Origin: an uncultured Selenomonadaceae bacterium
GTDB lineage: Bacteria > Bacillota > Negativicutes > Selenomonadales > Selenomonadaceae
Assembly (NCBI GenBank): GCA_965363355.1
Contig: CBDTTM010000001.1
Coordinates: 5,495 to 69,494, forward strand
DNA: 64,000 nt
Direction: 5' to 3'
Made by a program: the position numbers and the translations under genes
The notes under the pieces: generated by a model
Seen by the model: the letters and a program-made list of their open reading frames with translations, nothing else
The model's database searches: none
What the model was told of the DNA's origin: nothing
Part shown: piece by piece, positions 2,294 through 63,384 of the stretch
Numbering within the stretch: position 1 is the stretch's first letter
Layout of the letters: the number at the start of each line of letters is the position of its first letter

Positions 2294-3220
2294 TTATACA
2301 ATTATTTCTTTTGAGAAACGATTTATTGTATTTCTTTGCTCAATCTGTTTCGTCAATGTTTCAACTATATTATCTAAATCGTCTGCTGAGTAGAATTCGA
2401 TTTCGATTTTACTCTTACTTTTCCCTGGTTTTATACGGACTTTTGTTCCTAAGAGCATTTTTAATCGATCTTCTGCTTCAAGAACAAAAATTTCACGTTT
2501 TTCATCATTGCCTTCTATATCAATAATTTCATCTTTTTCTTTAAAATAGCTTGGATCTTTTTGTACTTTTTTTACAAGTTCCTCAGCCATTCGCGACGAT
2601 AAATCTTCTGCAATAATATAATCAGCTGCTTCTATTTGAAGTGCTTCATCCTCAATTCCAAGCAACGGCTTCGCCTGCCCCATGGTTATGGATGCATTGA
2701 TGATATATCCCTGTACACGTTTACTCAAACGTAAAAGGCGTAAGAAATTAGCAATATGTGACCGACTTCGACCTACACGTTTAGCTAATAAGTCTTGCGT
2801 AAGGCCGAATTCAGAAGATAGCCTTTCGTAAGCCAGCGCTTCTTCAATTGCATTCAAATCTTCTCGCTGTAAATTTTCAATCAAAGCAATTTCCGTTGAT
2901 TGTGCATCCGTATATTCTCTGACAAGAACGGGAACTTTCTCGAGCCCAGCTAATCTTGATGCTCGTAATCTTCTCTCCCCAGCAATCAATTCGTAACCTT
3001 GTGCACTTTTACGAACCAATAATGGTTGCAGTACGCCATATTCCTTGACAGAGTTCTTCAATTCCTCTAAAGTTTCTTCATCAAACTCTTTACGAGGCTG
3101 AAATGGGTTTACACTAATTTCATTTACAGAAATCTCTTGCACTTTATCTTTAACGTTTTCTGTATTTTTCAATAAAGCACCTAACCCTTTTCCTAGCCCT
3201 CCCGGCGATGTCTTAACCAT
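2294..3220 (-). CDS. parB: chromosome partitioning protein ParB/Spo0J
   Basis: ParB N-domain motif LIAGERRLRAS. HTH reads GLTQDLLAKRVGRSRSHIANFLRLLRL. Overlaps parA by 8 nt. Confidence 0.9.
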   Translation of the reverse strand: MVKTSPGGLGKGLGALLKNTENVKDKVQEISVNEISVNPFQPRKEFDEETLEELKNSVKEYGVLQPLLVRKSAQGYELIAGERRLRASRLAGLEKVPVLVREYTDAQSTEIALIENLQREDLNAIEEALAYERLSSEFGLTQDLLAKRVGRSRSHIANFLRLLRLSKRVQGYIINASITMGQAKPLLGIEDEALQIEAADYIIAEDLSSRMAEELVKKVQKDPSYFKEKDEIIDIEGNDEKREIFVLEAEDRLKMLLGTKVRIKPGKSKSKIEIEFYSADDLDNIVETLTKQIEQRNTINRFSKEIIV

Positions 3221-3986
3221 TCTTGCTCACCTCTTTAGCCAAATCGCGATATACCTCTGCCCCTTTTGATCTAGGATCATAGGCAATGATTGGTTGTCCG
3301 TAAGAAGGTGCTTCACTTAAGCGAACGTTTCTTGGAATAACCGTTTCATATACCTTTTCGGCAAAATGTTTGTGAACTTCTTCCGCTACTTGCATAGATA
3401 ACTTGGTACGGGAATCAAACATCGTCAATAATACGCCCTCAAGAACCAAATCTGGATTAAGATTTTGTTGAACAAGCGATATTGTATTCATAAGTTGTGA
3501 AACGCCTTCCAGTGCATAAAATTCAGATTGGATTGGCATCAATACGGAATCAGCTGCGGTTAATGAATTTAAAGTAAGCAAGCCTAAAGATGGTGGACAA
3601 TCTATAATTACATAGTCGTAATTTTTTTTGACCTTATCGATTGCTCTTTTCAATTTATTTTCCCGTGAAATTGCGGCAACTAACTCAACTTCAGCCCCAG
3701 CAAGTTCAATTGTTGCTGGTAAAATTGACAAATTGGCAAAATCTGTTTCCTGAATAACCAATTCAATATCAGCTCCAGCAACCAAAACGTCATAAATAGA
3801 TTGCTCAATCTGTGATTTATCCAATCCATAGCCACTTGTCGCATTTCCCTGAGGATCGACATCGACAAGTAATACCTTTTTATTGAGTTCCGCTAAGCAA
3901 GCGCTTAAATTTACCGAGGTAGTCGTTTTTCCAACGCCGCCTTTTTGATTGGCAATCGCAATAATTTTTGCCAAATTGTTCACCAT
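3213..3986 (-). CDS. parA: chromosome partitioning ATPase ParA/Soj
   Basis: Deviant Walker A KGGVGKTT near the N-terminus, 257 aa, classic Soj length and neighbourhood. Confidence 0.9.
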   Translation of the reverse strand: MVNNLAKIIAIANQKGGVGKTTTSVNLSACLAELNKKVLLVDVDPQGNATSGYGLDKSQIEQSIYDVLVAGADIELVIQETDFANLSILPATIELAGAEVELVAAISRENKLKRAIDKVKKNYDYVIIDCPPSLGLLTLNSLTAADSVLMPIQSEFYALEGVSQLMNTISLVQQNLNPDLVLEGVLLTMFDSRTKLSMQVAEEVHKHFAEKVYETVIPRNVRLSEAPSYGQPIIAYDPRSKGAEVYRDLAKEVSKNG

Positions 3987-4208: not shown

Positions 4209-4224
4209 TGTTTCACGTGAAACA
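4209..4224. other. parS: parS site, perfect TGTTTCACGTGAAACA
   Basis: Exact 16-mer. Ends 21 nt upstream of the ATG at 4246, in the promoter/5' UTR region of the metH operon. Confidence 0.85.
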
Positions 4225-7341: not shown

Positions 7342-7357
7342 TGTTTCACGTGAAACA
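7342..7357. other. parS: parS site, perfect TGTTTCACGTGAAACA, embedded in a longer near-palindrome
   Basis: Exact 16-mer starting 12 nt after the metH stop. Flanks tcatagat(a)...atctatga extend the inverted repeat. Confidence 0.85.
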
Positions 7358-7387: not shown

Positions 7388-7415
7388 AAGCCCGCAGCAA
7401 ATTGCTGCGGGCTTT
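7388..7415. terminator. bidirectional intrinsic terminator between metH and pfkA
   Basis: Hairpin aaagcccgcagca-at-tgctgcgggcttt with A/T runs on both sides. Confidence 0.7.
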
Positions 7416-7430
7416 GTTTCACGTGAAACA
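7415..7430. other. parS: parS site, perfect TGTTTCACGTGAAACA
   Basis: Exact 16-mer abutting the terminator stem. Ends 4 nt before the pfkA stop-codon end (7434). Confidence 0.85.
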
Positions 7431-15176: not shown

Positions 15177-16559
15177 CTATTTTCCAATGCAAAATTGACT
15201 AAAAATCTGATCTATAATATCTTCACCGACTGTATCGCCAGTTATCTCTCCTAATTTTTCCCATGAGCTGCGTAAATCAATCGATATGAAATCGACAGAC
15301 ATACCATTATTTACCGTTGTCAATGCCTCTGCCAAATGAAGATCTGCCTGGCGAAGGATTTCAGCTTGACGAACACTATTGACAAAAGCTCCATCGCCCT
15401 GGCTGATGTTGCTGCCATAAACAATTTTTACGATAGCCGCTTCAAGTGCCGCAAGGCCTGTTTCAAGAACTGTCGATATTTCTATGATATCATGCTCACC
15501 CGCAGCTTCACGGATTTCTTCTAGGGGAAGCTTACCGTCTAAATCCATTTTGTTGATCAAAATCAATGCATCCTTATCGCGGACAAGCTGCAATATTTCA
15601 CTATCTTCTGCGGATATTTCCCGGGAAAAATCCAAGACGACCAAAACCAGTGCTGCTTGTTCGACATAAGCTCTTGCTTTTTCAACGCCGATTTTTTCAA
15701 CAAGGTCTTCTGTTTTTCGAATTCCAGCTGTATCGATGATTTTTAATGGAATACCGCTAATATTAGCATATTCTTCGATACTGTCGCGCGTCGTCCCCGG
15801 AATATCCGTAACAATCGCTCGATTTTCCCTTAATAAGGCATTGAGCAGGCTCGATTTTCCGACATTCGGTTTTCCTATAATAGCCGTTTCTAGTCCATCT
15901 CTCAATATTTTGCCCGTCTTCGCTGTAGCTAAAATTGCCGCCAACTCCATTCGAAGTTCCGTAACTTCATCCGCAACGTTTTGCGTCACGACATCATCAA
16001 TATCATCCTCTGGAAAATCAATAGCTGCTTCCAAATGAGCAATCATGGCTAAAATAGAATGGCGCAAGCCCTTTATTTTTTCAGAAAAATGCCCTTGGAG
16101 ATGACCTTCTGCCAATCGTAAGGAAGCTTCGGTCTTAGCCTGGATGATGTCCATAACGGCTTGCGCTTGAGACAGATCCAGCCGTCCATTCAAAAAAGCA
16201 CGCTTCGTAAATTCTCCTGGTTCAGCTAACCGAGCACCGGCCTTAAAAGTCAGCGCCAGTATTTCCTTAAGCGGCATGATGCCTCCATGGCAATGTATTT
16301 CAACTACATCTTCTTTAGTATAAGAATGCGGCGCATACATCGGCAAACACAGCACTTCATCGACAATTTCTCCGGATTCCGGATAGATGATCTTTCCATA
16401 AGATGCTTGATGCGATTTTATTTCCCGCAACGTCTTTCCACTTGCTGCCTTAAATATTTTTTCGGCTACAGCCACTGCCTTTTCTCCACTGATCCGAACA
16501 ATGCCGATTCCGCCTTCTCCCATAGCTGTCGCAATAGCGCTGATTGTATCCGCCTGCAT
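15177..16559 (-). CDS. mnmE: tRNA modification GTPase MnmE/TrmE
   Basis: G1 [16 protein letters not shown]-terminal CIGK. Start trimmed to M21 (ATG at 16559) behind RBS aagaggaagggg. Confidence 0.9.
15615..15630. other. Noc-binding-site-like palindrome TATTTCCCGGGAAAAA (15/16 to TATTTCCCGGGAAATA)
   Basis: Read directly from the sequence, inside mnmE. Confidence 0.45.
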
Positions 16560-18977: not shown

Positions 18978-19299
18978 TGTGGATATTTTCGTCTTTTTTA
19001 TCTTTTCTCTATAAATATTGTTGATAACTTCCCTCTATTTTGGTAATATAACTTTAGCTACTTATCCACATTTCCACATAAGTCTATGGATTTATACCCA
19101 TTTTCTTAAGTTTATTAACAATATAGTCCACTTATACACATATTTATCCACAAAGATGTAAATTGCAAATATGCCACTGTATACAAAGCCTCGAGAATAT
19201 TTTAGTTTTTCGATTTTGTATTTTTTTTCGCCTTTTTACCTTTTCCACTGAATAAAGATATCCACAGTTGTGCATAAAATTGTGGATATCTTATCCAGG
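18978..19299. other. oriC: oriC upstream DnaA-box cluster (incA/B-like)
   Basis: Perfect TTATCCACA at 19062-19070 and 19144-19152. One-mismatch boxes at 18978, 19132, 19258 and 19281. A two-mismatch box at 19291. Confidence 0.8.
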
Positions 19300-19346
19300 T
19301 GTTGATAATTATTGTTCATATCTTATTTTCAGAAAGGATTTTTTTA

Positions 19347-20771
19347 ATGGATCAGACTCAATTAAAGGCCACGTGGGAGCAGATTCTAAAAAAACTAGAA
19401 GATTCTCTCTCACAAATCGTATGCGAAAATTGGCTAAAGCCACTCATCCCCGTTTCGCTGACACCAACCACTTTAGAAATAGGCACTCCGACCGATTTTT
19501 CTAAAGAGTGGATTGAAACTCATTATATTCCTTTCATCATCGACGCCAGTTATGAAGTCACCCAGGCAAAACTTGAAATACGAATTACCAGTCTGCATAT
19601 AGAAAATGAAAACAGTGCTGCACCTATTCCTCAGACCAGTGCTGCAACAGTTGTGCCCGAAGCGCAGCTGCCGATGCAGGCAACATTACTCGATGAACAG
19701 ACCAATTTTCGTGCCCCTACTCCATCGCCTATTGTTCCTGGAGACCCTTCCTCTTTGAACCCTAAATATGTCTTTGAGACGTTTGTCACAGGAAATTCCA
19801 ACCGATTTGCTCATGCAGCAGCACTAGCTGTAGCTGAATCACCAGCAAGAGTTTATAACCCGTTTTTTATGTATGGCGGCGTTGGCCTCGGAAAAACTCA
19901 TCTCATGCATGCAATCGGACATAAAATTTTACAAAATCATCCAGAAATGCGCGTTCTTTACATATCAAGCGAAAAGTTTACCAATGAATTGATCAATTCG
20001 ATTCGTGATGGTAAACCAGAAGCATTCCGACAAAAATATCGGAATATTGATGTTCTTCTCGTTGATGATATTCAATTCTTATCGAAAAAAGAACATACGC
20101 AAGAAGAATTTTTTCATACATTCAACACCTTGCACGATGCAAATAAACAAATCATCATTTCAAGCGATCGTCATCCTCGAGAAATCCAAACTCTTGAAGA
20201 CCGCCTCCGTTCCCGTTTTGAATGGGGCCTCATCACAGACATCCAAGCTCCGGATCTGGAAACGCGTATCGCTATTCTTCGTAAAAAAGCATTGCTTGAA
20301 AATCTCAATGTTCCAAATGATGTCATGGTTTATATTGCCAGCCGCATCGATAACAATATTCGAGAACTCGAAGGTGCTTTGACTAGAGTCGTTGCCTTTG
20401 CTTCGCTGAATAACCAAGTGATAACGAATGAACTAGCAGCCGCTGCCCTAAAAGATGTTTTCCCGACGGGCAAGACAAAACAGATCACACTTGAATTGAT
20501 CCAAGAAATCGTCGCATCCTATTTCAAGATTAAAGTCGACGAGTTATTGGTAAAAAAGCGGACGAGAAATTTGGCATTTCCTCGACAGATTGCGATGTAT
20601 CTATGCCGAGAACTCACAGATACATCTTTGCCTAGAATAGGAGAGATGTTTGGTGGGAGAGATCATACAACTGTCATCCATGCTCATGACAAAATCAGTC
20701 GCGAACGCAATGAAGATATGAAGCTCAACAATATCATCAAAGAACTTATCCAACGAATTGAAAGTATGTAG
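19347..20771 (+). CDS. dnaA: chromosomal replication initiator protein DnaA
   Basis: Walker [11 protein letters not shown], sensor motifs, C-terminal DNA-binding domain ([11 protein letters not shown]). Start trimmed to the ATG at 19347 (RBS aaagga). 474 aa. Confidence 0.95.
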
Positions 20772-20781
20772 TGAACAAAGC

Positions 20782-20999
20782 TGTGTATAACTATGTATTT
20801 TTCCTGTAGATGAATTGTGGGTAAGATTTATCCCTAAAAATTATGTGGATATGTGGATAACTCGACTATTATTTATAAACATGTTATTCACCACGATAAT
20901 GTTGATAACTTACCGTTTAACAGTAGTTATCAACATTTCCACAGTCCCTACGACTATTACGACTATTTTTTTATATATATTTAAAACAGTAATACTAAA
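20782..20999. other. oriC: oriC downstream DnaA-box cluster plus AT-rich unwinding region (incC-like)
   Basis: Boxes at 20782, 20816 and 20844. Perfect tgtggataa at 20852-20860. Inverted TTATCAACA pair at 20900 and 20927. Tandem tacgactat x2 at 20949-20966, then an AT-rich stretch to 20999. Confidence 0.7.
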
Positions 21000-50544: not shown

Positions 50545-51517
50545 TTAATATCACATCCGCTGGCATGCCGGGCTTAAAGATGGATGACGCATTATCAACA
50601 GCAATTTTTACAGCGAAGACCATGTTGGTGCGTTCGTTTTTGGTGATGCTCTGTCTAGGCGTATACTCGGCGGAATCTTTGATTTCTTTGATTGTTCCGT
50701 GAAATTTTTGGTCAGGTGCAGCATCGATTTTGATGATGGCTTCGTCACCAATTCTTATTTTCCCCAGTTCTTCCGATGGAACATAAATCTTGATCCAGCA
50801 GTCCGTCAGATCGGCAGCAGTTGCGATGGCTGCACCGCTTGCTAGATATTCGCCCATTTCAAAATTCTTGGTCAGTACCAGTCCGTCGAGGGGCGAACTT
50901 ATGGTCATGTCGTTGATATTTGTCAGAGATTCCTGTAAGACGGCTTCACAGCGTTCTATTTCATCTTGGGCGGCCAGAATCTGATCGGATCGGTTTCCAG
51001 CGAGCAGCAGAGATTCTTTTTCTTGGGCGGCACTGAGCTGGGCTTTGCTTGAATCATAAGCTGCTTCGGCATCATCGAGTTGTTGATGAGCCGTGGCGCC
51101 AGAGGCGTAAAGTGATTGCTGGCGATTGTAGTCTTTTTCGGATTTTATAAAAGCCGCTTTGGCAGCAGCTGTGTTGGCGGCGGCTTCGCGCAATTCTTCG
51201 GGACGGGCACCTTTTTCTAGGTCAGCTAGCTGCGCCTGGGCTTTTTTGAGTGCAGCTTGATCTCTTTTGCGCGCAGATAAAAAATCGGATCGATCAATTT
51301 TGGCGATGTTTTCTCCTTTATGAAGCATATCGCCTTCTTTAATAGATAAATCCGTCATGTAGCCACTGATCTTGGTCGTGATATCTACTTTCGTGACTTC
51401 TACAGTTCCCGTGTACGTTTTGGCTGTTTTTTGTTGTTGCTGATAATTATAAATGGCCATTCCTGTTAAAACCAGAAGCAATAGTATGACAAAAATAATT
51501 TTCAGGCGTTTGTTCAA
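50537..51517 (-). CDS. HlyD-family membrane fusion/periplasmic adaptor protein
   Basis: N-terminal TM, lipoyl-like and coiled-coil hairpin, beta-barrel. 326 aa. Confidence 0.8.
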   Translation of the reverse strand: MNKRLKIIFVILLLLVLTGMAIYNYQQQQKTAKTYTGTVEVTKVDITTKISGYMTDLSIKEGDMLHKGENIAKIDRSDFLSARKRDQAALKKAQAQLADLEKGARPEELREAAANTAAAKAAFIKSEKDYNRQQSLYASGATAHQQLDDAEAAYDSSKAQLSAAQEKESLLLAGNRSDQILAAQDEIERCEAVLQESLTNINDMTISSPLDGLVLTKNFEMGEYLASGAAIATAADLTDCWIKIYVPSEELGKIRIGDEAIIKIDAAPDQKFHGTIKEIKDSAEYTPRQSITKNERTNMVFAVKIAVDNASSIFKPGMPADVILND

Positions 51518-51519
51518 GG

Positions 51520-52116
51520 TCAGTCCCTCCTTTTGATACCGGATAGGAATATATCAAGTGTCTGCGTGAGATAGGTCGTAGCAGGCAGCGATTTTTCATC
51601 TTTGATTCGAGATCGAATGGGGCGGCTGAAAAAGAAAAAATTGACCATGCCGGCCCAAAGAATGACCGCAGCATCGACATCGAGATCTTGACGAAATAAG
51701 CCTTCTTCAATTCCACGGTGCAAGGCTTTGGCGATTATTTCAAAAACATATTTTAAGTGATTTTGGGCAAATGCTTCGAGAATTGCAGAAGGGGCTATGA
51801 ATTCGCGGTAACACAGCTTGATGAAATACGGGTTTTCCGTATGGATCTTAAGCATGGTCGCAGCATAGAGCTCGAGAATATCGATGGGACTGTTTTCTCC
51901 ATTTTGGGCTTTTTGGGTGAAGTCTACCAATATTTGAAGCTGTTTTTCGACAGCGGCTTGGTAAAGCCCTTGTTTGCTGCCAAAATGATAAGAAATCAAA
52001 GCGCTGTTGACGTTGGCTTTTGCGGCAAGTTGACGAATGGAAGTCTTATCAAAACCATCGTCGGCAAAAAGCTCGATGGCAGTCTGCAATAATTTTTCTT
52101 TGCTGTCGTTTTCCAT
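51520..52116 (-). CDS. TetR/AcrR-family transcriptional regulator
   Basis: N-terminal HTH LLQTAIELFADDGFDKTSIRQLAAKANVNSALISYHFGSK. Confidence 0.85.
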   Translation of the reverse strand: MENDSKEKLLQTAIELFADDGFDKTSIRQLAAKANVNSALISYHFGSKQGLYQAAVEKQLQILVDFTQKAQNGENSPIDILELYAATMLKIHTENPYFIKLCYREFIAPSAILEAFAQNHLKYVFEIIAKALHRGIEEGLFRQDLDVDAAVILWAGMVNFFFFSRPIRSRIKDEKSLPATTYLTQTLDIFLSGIKRRD

Positions 52117-52295
52117 AAATATCCCCTTTTAATCAAATGATTTAATCTTTTGATTAAATCATAAGGCCAAAGTAATTATTTTGCAAGAGAAATTCTTTGC
52201 GTTAGGCCAGATGGTGCCAATTTTTATAAAAAGAATTGTTATCAACAACCAAAAATTATATAATTAAGAAAATAGAACCAGCGGGGGTGAAGCCA

Positions 52296-53558
52296 ATGTT
52301 TGATATAATAAAAGATTATTTCAATAAAACACATGCAGCGAGTGCTAAAGCCCGCAATTTTTTTCGCTACATAGGACCGGGTATCTTAATTACAGTAGGG
52401 TTCATCGATCCAGGAAACTGGGCATCCAATATGGCGGCCGGGGCCCAGTACGGCTACTTGCTCTTGTGGATGGTCACGCTCTCGACAATCATGTTGATTG
52501 TTTTGCAGCATAATGCAGCTCATCTAGGAATCGTTACGGGCCTTTGTTTGTCAGAAGCTGCGGCGGCGTATGTTCAACCTATTATTGGTAAATTTATTCT
52601 GGTATCCGCTGTGGCGGCTTCCATTGCTACAGCTTTGGCGGAGATTCTCGGTGGCGCGATTGCCCTATCCATTTTGTTTGGCTTGCCAATCAAAATAGGA
52701 TCGGTCATCATGGCGATGGTTTGTGGCTTTTTGCTTTGGTCTAATTCCTATAAAAAGTTAGAGAAAATCATCATCGGTTTTGTTTCGGTTATTGGCTTGT
52801 CCTTTTTAGCAGAACTCTATTTCATTGATATCGATTGGGCACAGGCAGCTTCGGGCTGGGTCGTGCCGACGATGCCAGAGGGATCGCTTTTGATTGTGAT
52901 GAGCGTGCTCGGCGCCGTGGTCATGCCGCATAATTTGTTTTTGCATTCGGAGGTCATCCAGAGCAGGCAGTGGAACTTAGAGGATGAAATCATCATCAAA
53001 AAACAGCTCAAATATGAATTTTTGGATACCTTGTTTTCCATGGGATTGGGCTGGGCGATAAACAGTGCGATGATTCTCGTCGCCGTAGCGGTATTTTACA
53101 GTCACTCCATTGCTGTTGAGGATTTACAACAAGCCGTTGATATGTTGAGGCCTCTTTTGGGCGGCAGTGCAGCACTTATTTTTGCAATTGCGTTGCTCTT
53201 TTCGGGTATTGCATCGACGACAACTGCGGGGATGGCCGGTGGCAGTATTTATGCGGGCATCTTTGGTGAGGCGTATGACATAAAGGATTATCATTCCTGG
53301 CATGGCGTTGCTTTGACCTATGGCGTAGCCGTGGCTATTTTGTTTTTTGTCAGCGATCCGTTTCAGGGACTGATTTATTCGCAAATGGCGCTCAGCATCC
53401 AGCTTCCGTGGACCATTGGTTTGCAAATTTACTTGACTTCATCAAAACGTGTCATGGGCAAATACGCAAATAATTTGCGGCAGAAAATCAGCCTGGGTAT
53501 CATCGGGTTGATTGTTGCTGGTCTTAATATATGGTTATTGATTGAAATGCTTGATTGA
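52296..53558 (+). CDS. mntH: NRAMP-family divalent metal (Mn2+/Fe2+) transporter
   Basis: GPGILITVGFIDPGNW motif. Start trimmed to the ATG at 52296 behind gggggtga. 420 aa. Confidence 0.85.
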   Translation: MFDIIKDYFNKTHAASAKARNFFRYIGPGILITVGFIDPGNWASNMAAGAQYGYLLLWMVTLSTIMLIVLQHNAAHLGIVTGLCLSEAAAAYVQPIIGKFILVSAVAASIATALAEILGGAIALSILFGLPIKIGSVIMAMVCGFLLWSNSYKKLEKIIIGFVSVIGLSFLAELYFIDIDWAQAASGWVVPTMPEGSLLIVMSVLGAVVMPHNLFLHSEVIQSRQWNLEDEIIIKKQLKYEFLDTLFSMGLGWAINSAMILVAVAVFYSHSIAVEDLQQAVDMLRPLLGGSAALIFAIALLFSGIASTTTAGMAGGSIYAGIFGEAYDIKDYHSWHGVALTYGVAVAILFFVSDPFQGLIYSQMALSIQLPWTIGLQIYLTSSKRVMGKYANNLRQKISLGIIGLIVAGLNIWLLIEMLD

Positions 53559-53564
53559 GCACAT

Positions 53565-53610
53565 AAAAAAGGAAGCTTGTATTTCCCGGGAAATACAAGC
53601 TTCCTTTTTT
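53565..53610. terminator. 46-bp perfect palindrome (bidirectional terminator) whose centre is a perfect Noc-binding-site 16-mer
   Basis: Sequence aaaaaaggaagcttgTATTTCCCGGGAAATAcaagcttcctttttt. The 16-mer lies at 53580-53595. Confidence 0.7.
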
Positions 53611-53620
53611 ATGCCTAAAA

Positions 53621-54958
53621 TCATTCTAGGCGAAACGTATGTTTGAAATAACGGTAAAGCAAAACCGATGATAACAATATTGTGGCAGCTTCAGCCAATG
53701 GGACAGTAAGCCAGATCCCGCGGATGCCAAACAAGGCTGGCAGTAGAAAGATTCCTATGCCGATCCAAACAAAACCTTTGCTCAATGAAATCAAGGCTGC
53801 ATGCTGGGGATGTCCGACAGCCGTGAAAAAACCGGAGATAATGATGTTGAGTCCATTGACAAGGAAAGCAAATGCGTAGATTCTTGCGCCGAGGGCTGCA
53901 AATTCGAGTACTTTCGGATTGGCGTCTGCTAAGAATAAGGAGACGATTTCTTTGCTGCCGAAAAAAAGCAGGAAAAAAATCAAGACGCCGATGAAACAAG
54001 CCGAGATACTGGCGAGCTGCAGGGCTTTTTTGACACGTTTTTCTTTTTTATAGCCATAATTATAGCTGATGATTGCACCGGCACCGTCGGATAAACCAAT
54101 CAGCACGTTATTGCCGATAAAAGAAAGGTAGCTGATTACCGTAAAGGCTGCAACGCCAGATTCTCCTGCATAACGCATGAGCGTGATGTTGAATAGGAAT
54201 GTTGTCACCCCTGTACCGATTTCGGTGAGGCCTTCAGCCGAACCGCTGTAAAGTATATGGGAGGCAAGTTTTTTATCGAACGAGCCCTTGGCAATCTGTA
54301 AGCTGCAATGACGGCTGCAAAATGGAAGCAGTGCCATGATGAAGGCGACGGTGCAGCCGATGCCCATTGCCAGTGCCGCTCCTCTGATGCCAAGCTCCAA
54401 ATGAGCGATGAAGTACCAGGAAAAAAACATATGGCTGCTGACGGCAACGACTAAGGCAGCCATTGCGTAAAGCGGCATTGCAATGGTTTTTAAGGCATAG
54501 TCAAATACCAGCATGACGGTCAAAAATGGTAAAAAGATTCCAGTATAACGAATATAAGTTGCGGTCGGTTCAAGCAGTCGTTCATTTGCGCCGAGCAGAC
54601 GGGCAATCGATTCTGGATAAAAATATGCGGCGATGGCAAAAAACATCGATAAAAAGAATACGAGAATCAGAGCTGTGCGAAAGGCATCGCGAGCTTTGTC
54701 CCTCTCGCCGGCACCAAGCATTCGGCCAATCGAACTTTGCGCACCGATGCCGATGACTATGCTTAGAGCAATGGCGACACTGGCAAATGGCATTGCCAAA
54801 TTCACGCTGGCGAGTGCGTCCGTTCCGATGTAATTGCCGACAAAAAGGCCATCGATGATGGTGTTCAAGCCTAAAAAAAGCATAGCAGCAATTGCTGGAA
54901 GGCTGTAATGAACGAATAATTTTTGAATGCTATCCGTGCCTAAAATATTTTCTCTCAT
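53621..54958 (-). CDS. MATE-family efflux transporter
   Basis: 445 aa, 12 TM segments, typical MATE N-terminus (LFVHYSLPAIAAMLFLGLNTIIDGLFVGNYIG). Confidence 0.85.
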   Translation of the reverse strand: MRENILGTDSIQKLFVHYSLPAIAAMLFLGLNTIIDGLFVGNYIGTDALASVNLAMPFASVAIALSIVIGIGAQSSIGRMLGAGERDKARDAFRTALILVFFLSMFFAIAAYFYPESIARLLGANERLLEPTATYIRYTGIFLPFLTVMLVFDYALKTIAMPLYAMAALVVAVSSHMFFSWYFIAHLELGIRGAALAMGIGCTVAFIMALLPFCSRHCSLQIAKGSFDKKLASHILYSGSAEGLTEIGTGVTTFLFNITLMRYAGESGVAAFTVISYLSFIGNNVLIGLSDGAGAIISYNYGYKKEKRVKKALQLASISACFIGVLIFFLLFFGSKEIVSLFLADANPKVLEFAALGARIYAFAFLVNGLNIIISGFFTAVGHPQHAALISLSKGFVWIGIGIFLLPALFGIRGIWLTVPLAEAATILLSSVLLYRYFKHTFRLE

Positions 54959-55006
54959 ATAAAATCACTCCTATATAAGAGCATAAACCATGGAGCGGCT
55001 CTAAGG

Positions 55007-55816
55007 TCAAGCTTTGATGAGCTGAAACCATATTTCATAGTAATCGAGGCCATCTTTATGCGTACTGGCTAGATAGCGAGCTAGTAAATCACCTTTGGCT
55101 TTGTACCCTTTTTCTTCGATCCAAAGCATGGCAGTGGCGAGTATTTCGTTTTTGCTGGAGGCATAATCGGTAGATAATACGGTGTAAAAGTATTTTCCGC
55201 CAGGTGGAGCCTTGAATTCAGCTCGTTCGGCAGCGGAAAAACCTGCAAGTGTAGAATCTTCGAAGCTGAGGCCGACGAGGGCTTTGTCAAAATCCGCTGC
55301 GGTTAGCAAAGCTTCTTCGGGCAAAAGCATAGTATAGCGAAGAACATTCATCCAACTGGTGTCGGGAGTCTGGTATTGTTGGTTGATTTTGATCAGATCT
55401 TCAGCATCGAGGCTTAAAAATTTGCTTTTGAATAAGGGGGCAGGTACGATTGAAAATTTTCCGATGTGCTGTTGGCACTGTTCATAGCGCTCGGTTAGTT
55501 TTTCTAGTTGGCGGCTTTGTTCGCTGAGCAGTTTAATTTTTTGTTCAAGTGCCTGTTGATTTTCTTGCAGAAGGTTTTTCATCGCATCGATATCCATTTC
55601 GCACAAAGCCTGCCGTATATCCTTTACCGGTAGTTCCATGCTGCGAAAGGTCAAGATGTCCATGAGAATGACTAGGTCATCATAGCCATAATAACGATAG
55701 CTGTTATGTTCATGTCGATGAGAGGAAAGTAAGCCGGATTTCTCGTAATAGCGAAGGCTGTCGGTCGATATAGCAAAAAGTTTAGCAACTTCGCCGATGG
55801 TCCATTTGTTTTTCAT
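55007..55816 (-). CDS. MerR-family transcriptional regulator with C-terminal effector-binding domain (BmrR-like)
   Basis: N-terminal HTH WTIGEVAKLFAISTDSLRYYEKSGLL, coiled coil, then a ~150-aa C-domain. Confidence 0.85.
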   Translation of the reverse strand: MKNKWTIGEVAKLFAISTDSLRYYEKSGLLSSHRHEHNSYRYYGYDDLVILMDILTFRSMELPVKDIRQALCEMDIDAMKNLLQENQQALEQKIKLLSEQSRQLEKLTERYEQCQQHIGKFSIVPAPLFKSKFLSLDAEDLIKINQQYQTPDTSWMNVLRYTMLLPEEALLTAADFDKALVGLSFEDSTLAGFSAAERAEFKAPPGGKYFYTVLSTDYASSKNEILATAMLWIEEKGYKAKGDLLARYLASTHKDGLDYYEIWFQLIKA

Positions 55817-56259
55817 AGAAAAGTCCTTTTCTCTTGGCCGTAAAATACGGGCAATATTTATATATATTATTTGGTAGAGAATTCGTTGAGCGCGAGGGAT
55901 AGGAGCGGAACGGCATAAAACTAGATATTGTACAAATTAGCTTTGAGGGAGGAGTTTTCCTGCAAATCAGTAGGTTTATGTAGTTTATTGTGTTGGAAGA
56001 TTTATTTTTGATGCAGTAGTAAAAATGGACATTGTATATTGTTTTGATTTAACTAATTTTTACGCAATTCTTTTTATTGAAGTGAAATAAAAAAATGCAG
56101 TTTTAGGCTGGCGTTTTTTTTCACAATGTCGTATAATAACAAATAGAAATTATCACGATAACTTTTTGCTATAGGTTAAACAATTCAGATTATTAATTTG
56201 AAAGATGCCTATAGAGCATAATGGCTAAAACAATTTAAAAAGATTGCGAGGGAATTAAA

Positions 56260-57543
56260 TTGAATAAGAGCTTCTTTAAATCATTGCATTTTCAGGTTTT
56301 TGTATCGATCATTGTCGGTATAGCTGTAGGGTATTTTTATCCTTCCGTTGGTGCAAGCATGAAACCATTGGGAGATGCTTTCATCAAACTGATAAAAATG
56401 ATCATCGGACCGATTATCTTCTGTACGATTGTCGTCGGGATTGCCGGAATGGGCGATATGAAAAAAGTCGGACGCGTCGGCGGAAAAGCATTGCTTTATT
56501 TTGAAGCGGTAACGACGTTCTCGCTTTTCTTTGGCGTATTTTTAGTCAATTGGCTCAAACCTGGTGCCGGCATGAATGTCGATGCATCATCTTTGGATGC
56601 GGCCTCGGTGGCTGCGTATACGAGCGGGGCACAAAGCCATACAGCAGTGGACTTTTTTATGAATATCATTCCAAATACCGTGGTCGATGCTTTTGCTAAA
56701 GGCGAGATTTTGCAGATTCTGCTCTTTTCCGTTATGTTTGGCTGGGCGTTGTCTAAGTTCGGTGATAAAGGGCAGCGATTGCTTGGCCTGATCAGCGATG
56801 TTTCCCATATTTTCTTTGGTTTGGTAGACATTATCATGAAGCTTGCGCCAATCGGAACATTTGGTGCCATGGCCTTTACCATTGGGAAATATGGTATTGA
56901 ATCCTTAGGCCCATTGATGAAGCTTTTAGGAACCTTTTACTTTGCCTGTTTCTTGTTTATCATCTGTATTATTTGGCCGATTTCACGCTGGGCAGGCATT
57001 AGTTTCTTGAAATATCTCAAGTATTTCAAAGAAGAGCTTCTCGTTGTTTTCGGAACAGCTTCCTCGGAAAGCGTTTTGCCGCGAATGATGGAGAAGTTGG
57101 AAAAAGTAGGTTGTTCAAAATCAATTGTCGGACTTGTCATTCCGACAGGTTATTCGTTTAATCTTGATGGAACGTCGATTTATCTGACGGTTGCTGCTAT
57201 TTTCTTGGCGCAGGCGACGAATACAGATCTTACAGTTATGCAACAGGTTACGATCATTGCCGTGTTGCTTTTGACTTCAAAAGGAGCTTCGGGCGTTACG
57301 GGCAGCGGCTTCATTGTTTTGGCAGCGACCTTGTCGACGATTCCGACAATTCCGGTAGCAGCCTTAGCTTTGATTTTTGGTGTCGACCGTTTTATGACGC
57401 AGGGTCGTGCTTTGACAAACCTCATCGGGAATGGTATAGCGACGTTTGTTGTTGCTGAATGGGAAAATGAGCTTGATAAAGACAAGCTTAAAAAAGTGAT
57501 GTATGAAGAAGTTGAACCGGAATCGGTCAAAATATCTTCATGA
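56260..57543 (+). CDS. dicarboxylate/amino acid:cation symporter (DctA/GltP family)
   Basis: SDF-family motifs ([33 protein letters not shown]). TTG start. Confidence 0.85.
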
Positions 57544-57556
57544 GATAAGATTTTAA

Positions 57557-57597
57557 AAAGGACAGTTTTTGTTTTGGCAAAAGCTGTCCTTTTTTTG
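57557..57597 (+). terminator. intrinsic terminator after the symporter gene
   Basis: Hairpin aaaggacag...ctgtccttt followed by a T-run. Confidence 0.65.
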
Positions 57598-57673
57598 CTT
57601 TTTCTTTTAATGAAAAAGAGGTAGAAAGATTCATTGCACAAAATAGAATTTCAGGCTAAGCAGATGGAAAAAC

Positions 57674-57838
57674 TTATCCACAGGTTTATCCTCTATCCAT
57701 GGTGATTTTAGGTAAAAATGTATACTAAATATAGAAAAGTAGGTAAAAAAGATAGAATATCTAGAGTTATACACTTTTTTATCCACATTATCCACAGGCA
57801 GGTTAGTCACATGTATAAAAAAAGTCACTTTATGCACA
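57674..57838 (+). repeat. origin-distal DnaA-box cluster
   Basis: Perfect TTATCCACA at 57674-57682, 57779-57787 and 57788-57796 (the last two abut). TTATGCACA at 57830-57838. Weaker TTATACACT at 57767 and TTATCCTCT at 57686. All in the same orientation. Confidence 0.7.
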
Positions 57839-57860
57839 GGGGCTTTTAGAAGCCAATTGT

Positions 57861-57889
57861 TTGCATTTTTCAGTAAAGGACGCTACAAT
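57861..57889 (+). promoter_or_regulatory. sigma-70-type promoter TTGCAT-17-TACAAT upstream of the mgtC-like gene
   Basis: ttgcat at 57861-57866, tacaat at 57884-57889. Confidence 0.5.
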
Positions 57890-57912
57890 AAGATTACTTT
57901 TAATAAGGCGAG

Positions 57913-58596
57913 GTGAGCTTTTTGGTTGTTTCTGAATGGGAATTGCTGTTGCGATTGATCCTATCTTGTATTTTGGGTGGGATGATCGGCTATGAGCGGC
58001 AGTCGAGGCATAAATCGGCAGGTCTTCGGACCAATGTTTTGGTTTGTCTGGGCTCGTGCTTGATTATGGTCTTATCGCAGGCACTTTATCAGAATGTTGA
58101 AGGAAAGACCAATGCAGACCCGGCTCGTTTAGCGGCACAGGTGGTCAGCGGCATCGGTTTTCTAGGTGCCGGGGCAATCATGAAAGAGGGGCTTACGGTC
58201 ACAGGGCTTACGACAGCAGCCTGTCTATGGGTTGTTGCTGGTGTAGGATTGGCTGTAGGTGCAGGGTTTTATTCGGGGGCATTGTTTACAGCGGCATTGG
58301 TCTTCATCACGTTAGGCACGTTGTCCCGGCTTGATGATTGGGTTACGCATGAGAAGAACTTGTCGATTGAGATTCACACAATCGATGCACCGGGACAGCT
58401 TGTCCATATCAATCAATGTCTCGATGATCTCCAAATAAAGATCAAAGGTCTCAAAATCAAAAAATCAGAAGATGAAGCAGAAGAAGAGACGATGTGCATC
58501 GAACTGTTCGTCTTCAACAAAAAAGGAATCAAAAGCATCTTCATTATGGATGCACTTAAACAGATCGATGGTATTTTAAGTGTAAACATAGAATGA
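57913..58596 (+). CDS. MgtC/SapB-family membrane protein
   Basis: LRLILSCILGGMIGYERQSRHKSAGLRTN motif, with a C-terminal ACT-like soluble domain. Start is the GTG at 57913 or the TTG at 57922. Confidence 0.85.
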   Translation: MSFLVVSEWELLLRLILSCILGGMIGYERQSRHKSAGLRTNVLVCLGSCLIMVLSQALYQNVEGKTNADPARLAAQVVSGIGFLGAGAIMKEGLTVTGLTTAACLWVVAGVGLAVGAGFYSGALFTAALVFITLGTLSRLDDWVTHEKNLSIEIHTIDAPGQLVHINQCLDDLQIKIKGLKIKKSEDEAEEETMCIELFVFNKKGIKSIFIMDALKQIDGILSVNIE

Positions 58597-58603
58597 AAGA
58601 AAT

Positions 58604-58650
58604 AAAAAATCGCTATTCTCAACTAAATGAGAATAGCGATTTTTATTTTT
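58604..58650. terminator. bidirectional intrinsic terminator
   Basis: Hairpin atcgctattctc-aactaaat-gagaatagcgat flanked by A and T runs. Confidence 0.75.
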
Positions 58651-63347: not shown

Positions 63348-63384
63348 AAAAAAATACCCGCCAGAGCAGGGCGGGTATTTTTTG
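63348..63384 (+). terminator. intrinsic terminator
   Basis: Hairpin atacccgcc-agagcag-ggcgggtat followed by T6. Confidence 0.75.

Follow-up and report, generated by a model that had tools for sequence, protein, structure and literature searches.

In Bacillus subtilis and in Staphylococcus aureus, the cell-division protein Noc binds a short palindrome, the Noc-binding site (NBS), for which Wu et al. 2009 is reportedly among the sources. NBS sites are described as 16 bp long, and the NBS duplex of Jalal et al. 2021 reads GGATATTTCCCGGGAAATATCC (PMC8429893). B. subtilis carries about 70 NBS (PMC4331003), and ChIP-seq of S. aureus Noc gave 41 loci with the same consensus core, the binding at every peak extending over 8-10 kb (PMC5540599; Pang et al. 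2017). With CTP bound, the B. subtilis protein slides onto adjacent DNA and anchors this DNA at the membrane (PMC8429893). Chromosomal parS, the site of ParB/Spo0J, is a sister 16-bp palindrome that likewise loads a CTP-dependent clamp, but it differs from NBS at two specificity positions and its reader is ParB, not Noc. Residues Q173, K179, K184 and R201 (Caulobacter ParB numbering) are sufficient to switch ParB from parS to NBS (PMC7383237; Jalal et al. 2020), and Noc homologues reportedly share NBS specificity (PMC7383237, PMC5540599). The ancestral Firmicute origin cluster has been inferred to include noc (PMC8136486); the presence of the gene in the genome analysed here is therefore not new. 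Another closely related system is the bidirectional Rho-independent terminator, in which convergent stop codons are directly followed by an A-tract, a stem-loop and a T-tract that read alike in both directions.

We analysed a 64,000-nt stretch of DNA (hereafter the window) from a genome in which LpxC is present, which points to a diderm Firmicute. The LpxC match (G000:C29:14570-15400, 268.6 bits) was reported with one in-frame TGA. The genes for an Nramp/MntH-type Mn2+ transporter (mntH) and a MATE efflux transporter converge in the window, with their stop codons 62 bp apart, and the gap is nearly filled by a perfect 52-bp palindrome at 53562-53613. Its arms (53562-53587 and 53588-53613) are 26 nt each, 100% complementary and without a spacer. 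The mntH TGA stop codon (53556-53558) lies 6 nt ahead of the A-tract, and the MATE stop codon (53621-53623) lies 10 nt past the T-tract. The original prediction had described a perfect 46-bp palindrome between these convergent genes; it is real, and is the part of the 52 bp that is bounded by A6 and T6. The further claim that its central 16 bp equal the NBS consensus also proved correct, as 53580-53595 reads TATTTCCCGGGAAATA, a sequence within the published NBS oligo (PMC8429893). The coordinates are collected in Table 1.

Table 1. Coordinates of the palindrome, its neighbouring genes and the origin-cluster features in the window.
Feature	Position	Strand	Remarks
parS TGTTTCACGTGAAACA, four perfect copies	2271-2286, 4209-4224, 7342-7357, 7415-7430		only ones in the assembly at <=2 mismatches
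ParB/Spo0J gene	2294-3220		in the window's origin cluster
Soj gene	3213-3986		in the window's origin cluster
noc gene, 301 aa	11588..12493	-	TIGR04285, 337.9 bits (cut-off 315); ~41 kb from the palindrome; proposed trans-acting partner
Second NBS-like site TATTTCCCGGGAAAAA, 1 mismatch	15615..15630	.	inside mnmE, ~3.5 kb from the oriC DnaA boxes
Perfect DnaA boxes of oriC	19062, 19144, 20852		region 19062-20860
Nramp/MntH-type Mn2+ transporter gene	52236..53558	+	Pfam PF01566, E = 9.5e-108; NCBIfam Nramp family models
Conserved core, 46 bp	53565..53610	.	A6 + 9-bp outer stem GGAAGCTTG + NBS + CAAGCTTCC + T6; candidate bidirectional intrinsic terminator
A6 tract	53565..53570	.	U-tract in the minus-strand transcript; read off the sequence
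16-bp NBS, perfect	53580..53595	.	single perfect copy in the assembly
T6 tract	53605..53610	.	U-tract in the plus-strand transcript; read off the sequence
MATE efflux transporter gene (MatE)	53621..54958	-	Pfam PF01554, E = 1.7e-41

The palindrome was carried identically by an ENA contig from an independent assembly (L052). Three Logan contigs (L051, L053 and L054; DRR343902-DRR343904), from strains 99.5-99.7% identical, end at the same base, 4 nt beyond the palindrome centre. De Bruijn assemblers typically break at palindromes longer than k. A practical point follows for assembly work: spacerless palindromes of more than 31 bp, such as 53562-53613, fragment de Bruijn assemblies.

Several other identities were considered and discarded. 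The 52-mer is single-copy in the genome, which rules out a repeat or mobile element. An Rfam E-value scan of 51000-58500 for known RNA families returned only sub-threshold hairpin look-alikes (mir-556, BSnc120), far under their gathering scores. An operator of the neighbouring MerR or TetR regulators was dismissed on position, because both genes have their 3' ends there and the palindrome is not in a promoter.

Copies of the 16-mer in the 2.8-Mb assembly were compared with expectations from Markov models of orders 0-5. One perfect copy was observed against 0.001-0.003 expected, two copies with 1 mismatch against 0.05-0.07, and eight with 2 mismatches against 1.0-1.6. For the 14-bp core ATTTCCCGGGAAAT, 21 palindromes of identical composition were used as controls. 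The core occurs genome-wide in 2 perfect copies, 8 with 1 mismatch and 36 with 2 mismatches, whereas the controls gave 0 perfect copies and means of ~0.45 and ~7.5 for 1 and 2 mismatches. At up to 1 mismatch this amounts to 10 copies versus ~0.45, a ~20-fold excess, and at up to 2 mismatches to 46 versus ~8. The idea that NBS-like sites are no more frequent than composition predicts, which would have weighed against the original prediction, thus did not hold. On how many copies lie in terminator-like palindromes, the genome scan gave a one-sided answer: among 10 strong sites, the one at 53580-53595 is palindromic in its surroundings and is the only intergenic one, while the other 9 are inside long open frames and their flanks show no symmetry. 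Within the window, the palindrome NBS is ~33 kb and the mnmE site ~3.5 kb from the oriC DnaA boxes; these distances concern the two window sites, the assembly being in 339 contigs.

The variant TATTGCCCGGGCAATA accounted for three of the 2-mismatch matches in this genome (C174:5438, C179:73 and C29:9439). At C174 and C179 it is read in frame as GIARAIA of paralogous ABC-ATPase genes, past the LSGGQQQR signature. Those two matches are therefore explained by coding, and some NBS-like matches are coding by-products.

The genome encodes a candidate reader of the site. The candidate Noc of the window exceeded the TIGR04285 cut-off (Table 1), on which its paralogue ParB scored 239 bits, and its best PDB matches were the Noc structures 7NFU, 7NG0 and 7OL9. 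Its N-terminus, MKGLARLFG, resembles the conserved membrane-targeting peptide described for Noc, and the CTP motif GERRLRA is present. When its DNA-reading region (GKSQSTIANKLRLLKL...TERHAR) was aligned to Geobacillus Noc (7NFU), the four specificity positions were found to be Q/K/K/R; the window's ParB has R/F/R/G at the same positions. By profile score and by QKKR, this genome thus encodes a cognate Noc with the specificity residues of an NBS reader. The noc gene is followed by gidB, gidA and mnmE and belongs to the origin cluster gidA-gidB-noc / soj-spo0J. Together, these sequence data support 53580-53595 as a credible candidate Noc-binding site.

The resemblance to the B. subtilis and S. 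aureus systems extends to the identical 16-bp palindrome, its genome-wide over-representation, the origin-proximal position of the site, and a Noc with an N-terminal amphipathic-type peptide, a GERRxRA CTP motif and QKKR. Unlike in those systems, the host is a diderm Firmicute, its family is mostly without noc, and only ~10 strong sites were counted. This copy also differs from known NBS in that it is intergenic and sits inside a 46-52-bp hairpin, whereas the other sites of this genome, and nearly all of those in relatives, are genic and without extended symmetry.

We then compared noc and NBS among relatives. In the comparison of 40 relatives, an NBS at <=1 mismatch was found in 13 of 16 noc-positive genomes versus 1 of 25 noc-negative ones, and a control pattern, the NBS read backwards, matched in just two genomes, once in each. 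NBS presence tracks noc presence; this is an association among related genomes and not a statistical test. A Noc-level score (>=312 bits) was reached by only three of 25 sampled genomes of the family (G000, the genome studied here, G001 and G017), and most of the family is without noc. In a 300-genome sample of the class, 37 other genomes carried a perfect NBS, with none among the 65 other members of the family in that sample. In other genera (L006-L016), the DNA that follows the mntH orthologue carries no NBS; it is non-homologous there and, at that evolutionary distance, uninformative.

The terminator anatomy was examined by RNA folding. On either strand the palindrome is predicted to form 24 pairs closed by a CCGG tetraloop, with folding energies of -38.3 and -40.1 kcal/mol for the two strands in 86-nt context (z = -8.1 and -8.9). 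The core hairpin has a non-A/U stem of 15 bp (dG -21.4 kcal/mol) directly followed by six U on both strands. The palindrome therefore combines a stable stem-loop with a U-tract on both strands, just past two convergent stop codons, and would be expected from its sequence to terminate the mntH and MATE transcripts. In this respect the original prediction, which saw a hairpin with U-tracts on both strands that looks like a bidirectional terminator, is supported computationally by the fold and the A6/T6 flanks.

Two of its further claims were not supported. The symmetry had been called more than a terminator needs; however, the genome contains 235 perfect inverted repeats with arms >=12, of which ~40 have arms >=19, and the palindrome ranks second by arm length and 21st by folding energy among the 235. 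The repeats with arms >=19 mostly have the form A-tract/stem/T-tract, several with the same CATAAAA...TTTTATG ends, and they include a 58-bp spacerless palindrome. Likewise, CCGG had been said to leave almost no loop, whereas the predicted fold has a normal 4-nt loop. Since long hairpins are common in this genome, the long symmetry and tight loop of the palindrome are ordinary there. A simple terminator scan of the window reported hairpins of like design at 57555-57594, 58605-58644 (both strands) and 63349-63383; it missed the palindrome because, under the rules of that scan, the stem absorbs the T-tract. As with other bidirectional Rho-independent terminators, the A-tract, stem-loop and T-tract read the same on both strands right after convergent stops, and size and energy fall inside this genome's range. 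The palindrome departs from usual bidirectional terminators in two ways: its loop-proximal 16 bp are a protein-binding palindrome, and its loop, CCGG, is self-complementary, so the DNA is a perfect palindrome without a spacer. Being 52 bp long and without a spacer, the palindrome might in principle also adopt a cruciform, and the NBS would then no longer exist as a duplex.

To follow the locus beyond these strains, we used a metagenome contig, L055 (Ga0183099_1000205), with 6.3 kb of synteny and a DNA identity of 88.8%; a sister species is its most likely source. Its copy of the 46-bp core is 100% identical, within a 52-nt identity run at 53565-53616; the outer CAT/ATG pairs of the palindrome are not kept. 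For comparison, third codon positions were 75% identical in mntH and 71% in MATE (~73%), larger intergenic regions were 84-86% identical, and perfect identity was reached by just 2.7% of the 46-bp windows along the alignment. Judged from this alignment, the core of the palindrome is under purifying selection. The core has no substitutions, hence no compensatory changes, so that constraint on the RNA hairpin and constraint on the Noc site are not separable. A two-strand hairpin alone is strongly constrained.

The generality of the overlap was then considered. Among 16 NBS at <=1 mismatch in relatives, none had arms extended by more than 2 bp, and among 27 further perfect NBS of relatives one did (L070, 10 bp), giving 1 of 43 examined. 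That site (L070:1491-1526) and L068:1501-1516, both from genus g36 of family f12, are orthologous perfect NBS with a common right flank. In L070, the 10 nt on the left side match the reverse complement of the right flank exactly; the left flank of L068 is unrelated, and neither has a T-tract. The picture in L070 resembles a palindrome extension by template switching that started from the NBS. A wide scan of 185,579 species genomes with the pattern A5-N6-14-NBS-N6-14-T5 returned 16 loci, 15 of which were chance A/T flanks in DNA of 23-39% GC (13 of these at 23-29% GC). The sole other terminator-like case was L046:6385-6424 (CAZBJD010000060.1), with the sequence aaaaaaagcaacTATTTCCCGGGAAATAgttgcttttttt (A7-GCAAC-NBS-GTTGC-T7). 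It lies in an uncultured Eubacteriales MAG, 11 nt past the end of a 362-aa ORF, and the genome encodes a Noc-like protein (307.8 bits on TIGR04285). With arms at 1 of 43 relatives' sites and one terminator-like locus beyond this one, a general class of NBS in terminators was rejected. The overlap of NBS and terminator is sporadic and rare, and nothing in it points to a new mechanism. Each component is a textbook element and only the combination of the two at one locus is uncommon; a literature search for Noc-binding sites overlapping intrinsic terminators found no paper in the collection searched.

The four parS sites of the window are all intergenic, at gene 3' ends, within ~5 kb around soj/spo0J. 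The one at 7342-7357 is flanked by 10-bp arms (TTTCATAGAT / ATCTATGAAA) that make it the middle of a near-palindrome, which has a 1-nt bulge and lacks a U-tract. The one at 7415-7430 directly adjoins a bidirectional terminator hairpin (GCCCGCAGC...GCTGCGGGC), and the T-tract is common to both.

From the sequence, we consider it probable that the locus is of dual use, a bidirectional intrinsic terminator that would carry a Noc-binding site as its tip. As RNA, the palindrome would fold into a long hairpin followed by six U on either strand and so stop the transcripts that converge from mntH and MATE. In the DNA duplex, the central 16 bp of the palindrome, the best NBS of the chromosome, would nucleate Noc, a ParB-family CTPase, at this distance of ~33 kb from oriC. 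By analogy with B. subtilis, Noc might then close into a CTP clamp, slide onto flanking DNA and tether it to the membrane. We infer termination and Noc binding themselves, and equally the absence of coupling between them, from the sequence; the two functions are most likely independent, the unconstrained tip of an intergenic hairpin being a cheap place for a palindromic site. The two overlapping functions originally proposed are thus retained on the strength of the terminator anatomy and of a credible NBS (QKKR Noc, enrichment, conservation in the sister species), without the appeals to excess symmetry and to a missing loop. Against the dual-use reading counts the number of strong NBS: with only ~10 in the genome, it is uncertain how much Noc a single site would receive. 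It appears unlikely that the locus is an ordinary bidirectional terminator whose NBS match arose by chance or is unused by Noc. Such a reading would be in keeping with a palindrome that is unremarkable among the genome's hairpins, with conservation in L055 that is explicable if a hairpin used on two strands is doubly constrained, and with the genic position of the other 9 strong NBS, which makes this site atypical. However, the chance that an NBS forms the central 16 bp of a fully palindromic hairpin is ~2e-5, and at most ~5e-3 over all 235 perfect inverted repeats; a chance origin of the NBS at the palindrome tip would thus be unlikely. Moreover, the genome has both a QKKR Noc and the ~20-fold NBS enrichment, and a perfect site is expected to be bound by any Noc of B. 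subtilis-like specificity (PMC7383237, PMC5540599).

The order of events might also be reversed, with the NBS first and the palindrome growing outward from it by intramolecular template switching (quasi-palindrome correction), so that the arms would reflect mutation and not selection for termination. We regard this as quite improbable. The arms end exactly in A6/T6, fill the convergent gap and are 100% conserved over ~11% divergence, which fits a selected terminator, and such an extension was seen in just 1 of 43 relatives' NBS. The L070 site, with its 10-bp extension around a perfect NBS, its L068 orthologue with an unrelated left flank, neither with a T-tract, and the symmetric arms of parS 7342-7357 with their 1-nt bulge and no U-tract are nevertheless of the kind that it predicts. 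A coupled device, in which apex-bound Noc would act as a roadblock that aids termination, or in which convergent transcription, supercoiling or cruciform extrusion would gate Noc loading, seems highly improbable. Its gating version would tie nucleoid occlusion near the origin to expression of the Mn transporter or to transcription nearby. The physical overlap, the conservation of all 46 bp and the independent NBS-apex palindrome in the noc-bearing L046 genome are compatible with coupling, but nothing in the sequence requires it, and two cases among 185,579 species under the pattern used are a rarity that speaks against a general mechanism. Very doubtful, too, is a combination of the last two ideas, by which ParB-family loading sites (the NBS here, parS at 7342) would seed hairpin growth in intergenic DNA and then couple termination with Noc loading. 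Were it true, a Noc spread of 8-10 kb as in S. aureus (PMC5540599) would reach a DnaA-box cluster at 57.7 kb.

If the dual-use reading is right, one stretch of DNA would hold two unrelated signals, an RNA terminator and a DNA clamp-loading site, both intact across species. A diderm Firmicute lineage would also have kept a small working set of NBS though its family has mostly lost noc. The palindrome changes no understanding of Noc or of terminators; the arrangement is rare, and coupling is not indicated.

Two minor observations concern the surroundings of NBS. In uncultured gut Bacilli/'Tenericutes' MAGs of 23-29% GC (L035-L045, L047-L049), most loci have several perfect NBS in clusters that span from a few hundred bp up to several kb; some lie beside parS, and five occur in ~650 bp in L042. 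In the window, three perfect DnaA boxes TTATCCACA, two of them abutting, are found in 123 bp at 57674-57796; the NBS is ~4 kb away and the oriC boxes are ~37 kb away. This cluster is within the distance of 8-10 kb over which Noc of S. aureus reportedly spreads (PMC5540599).
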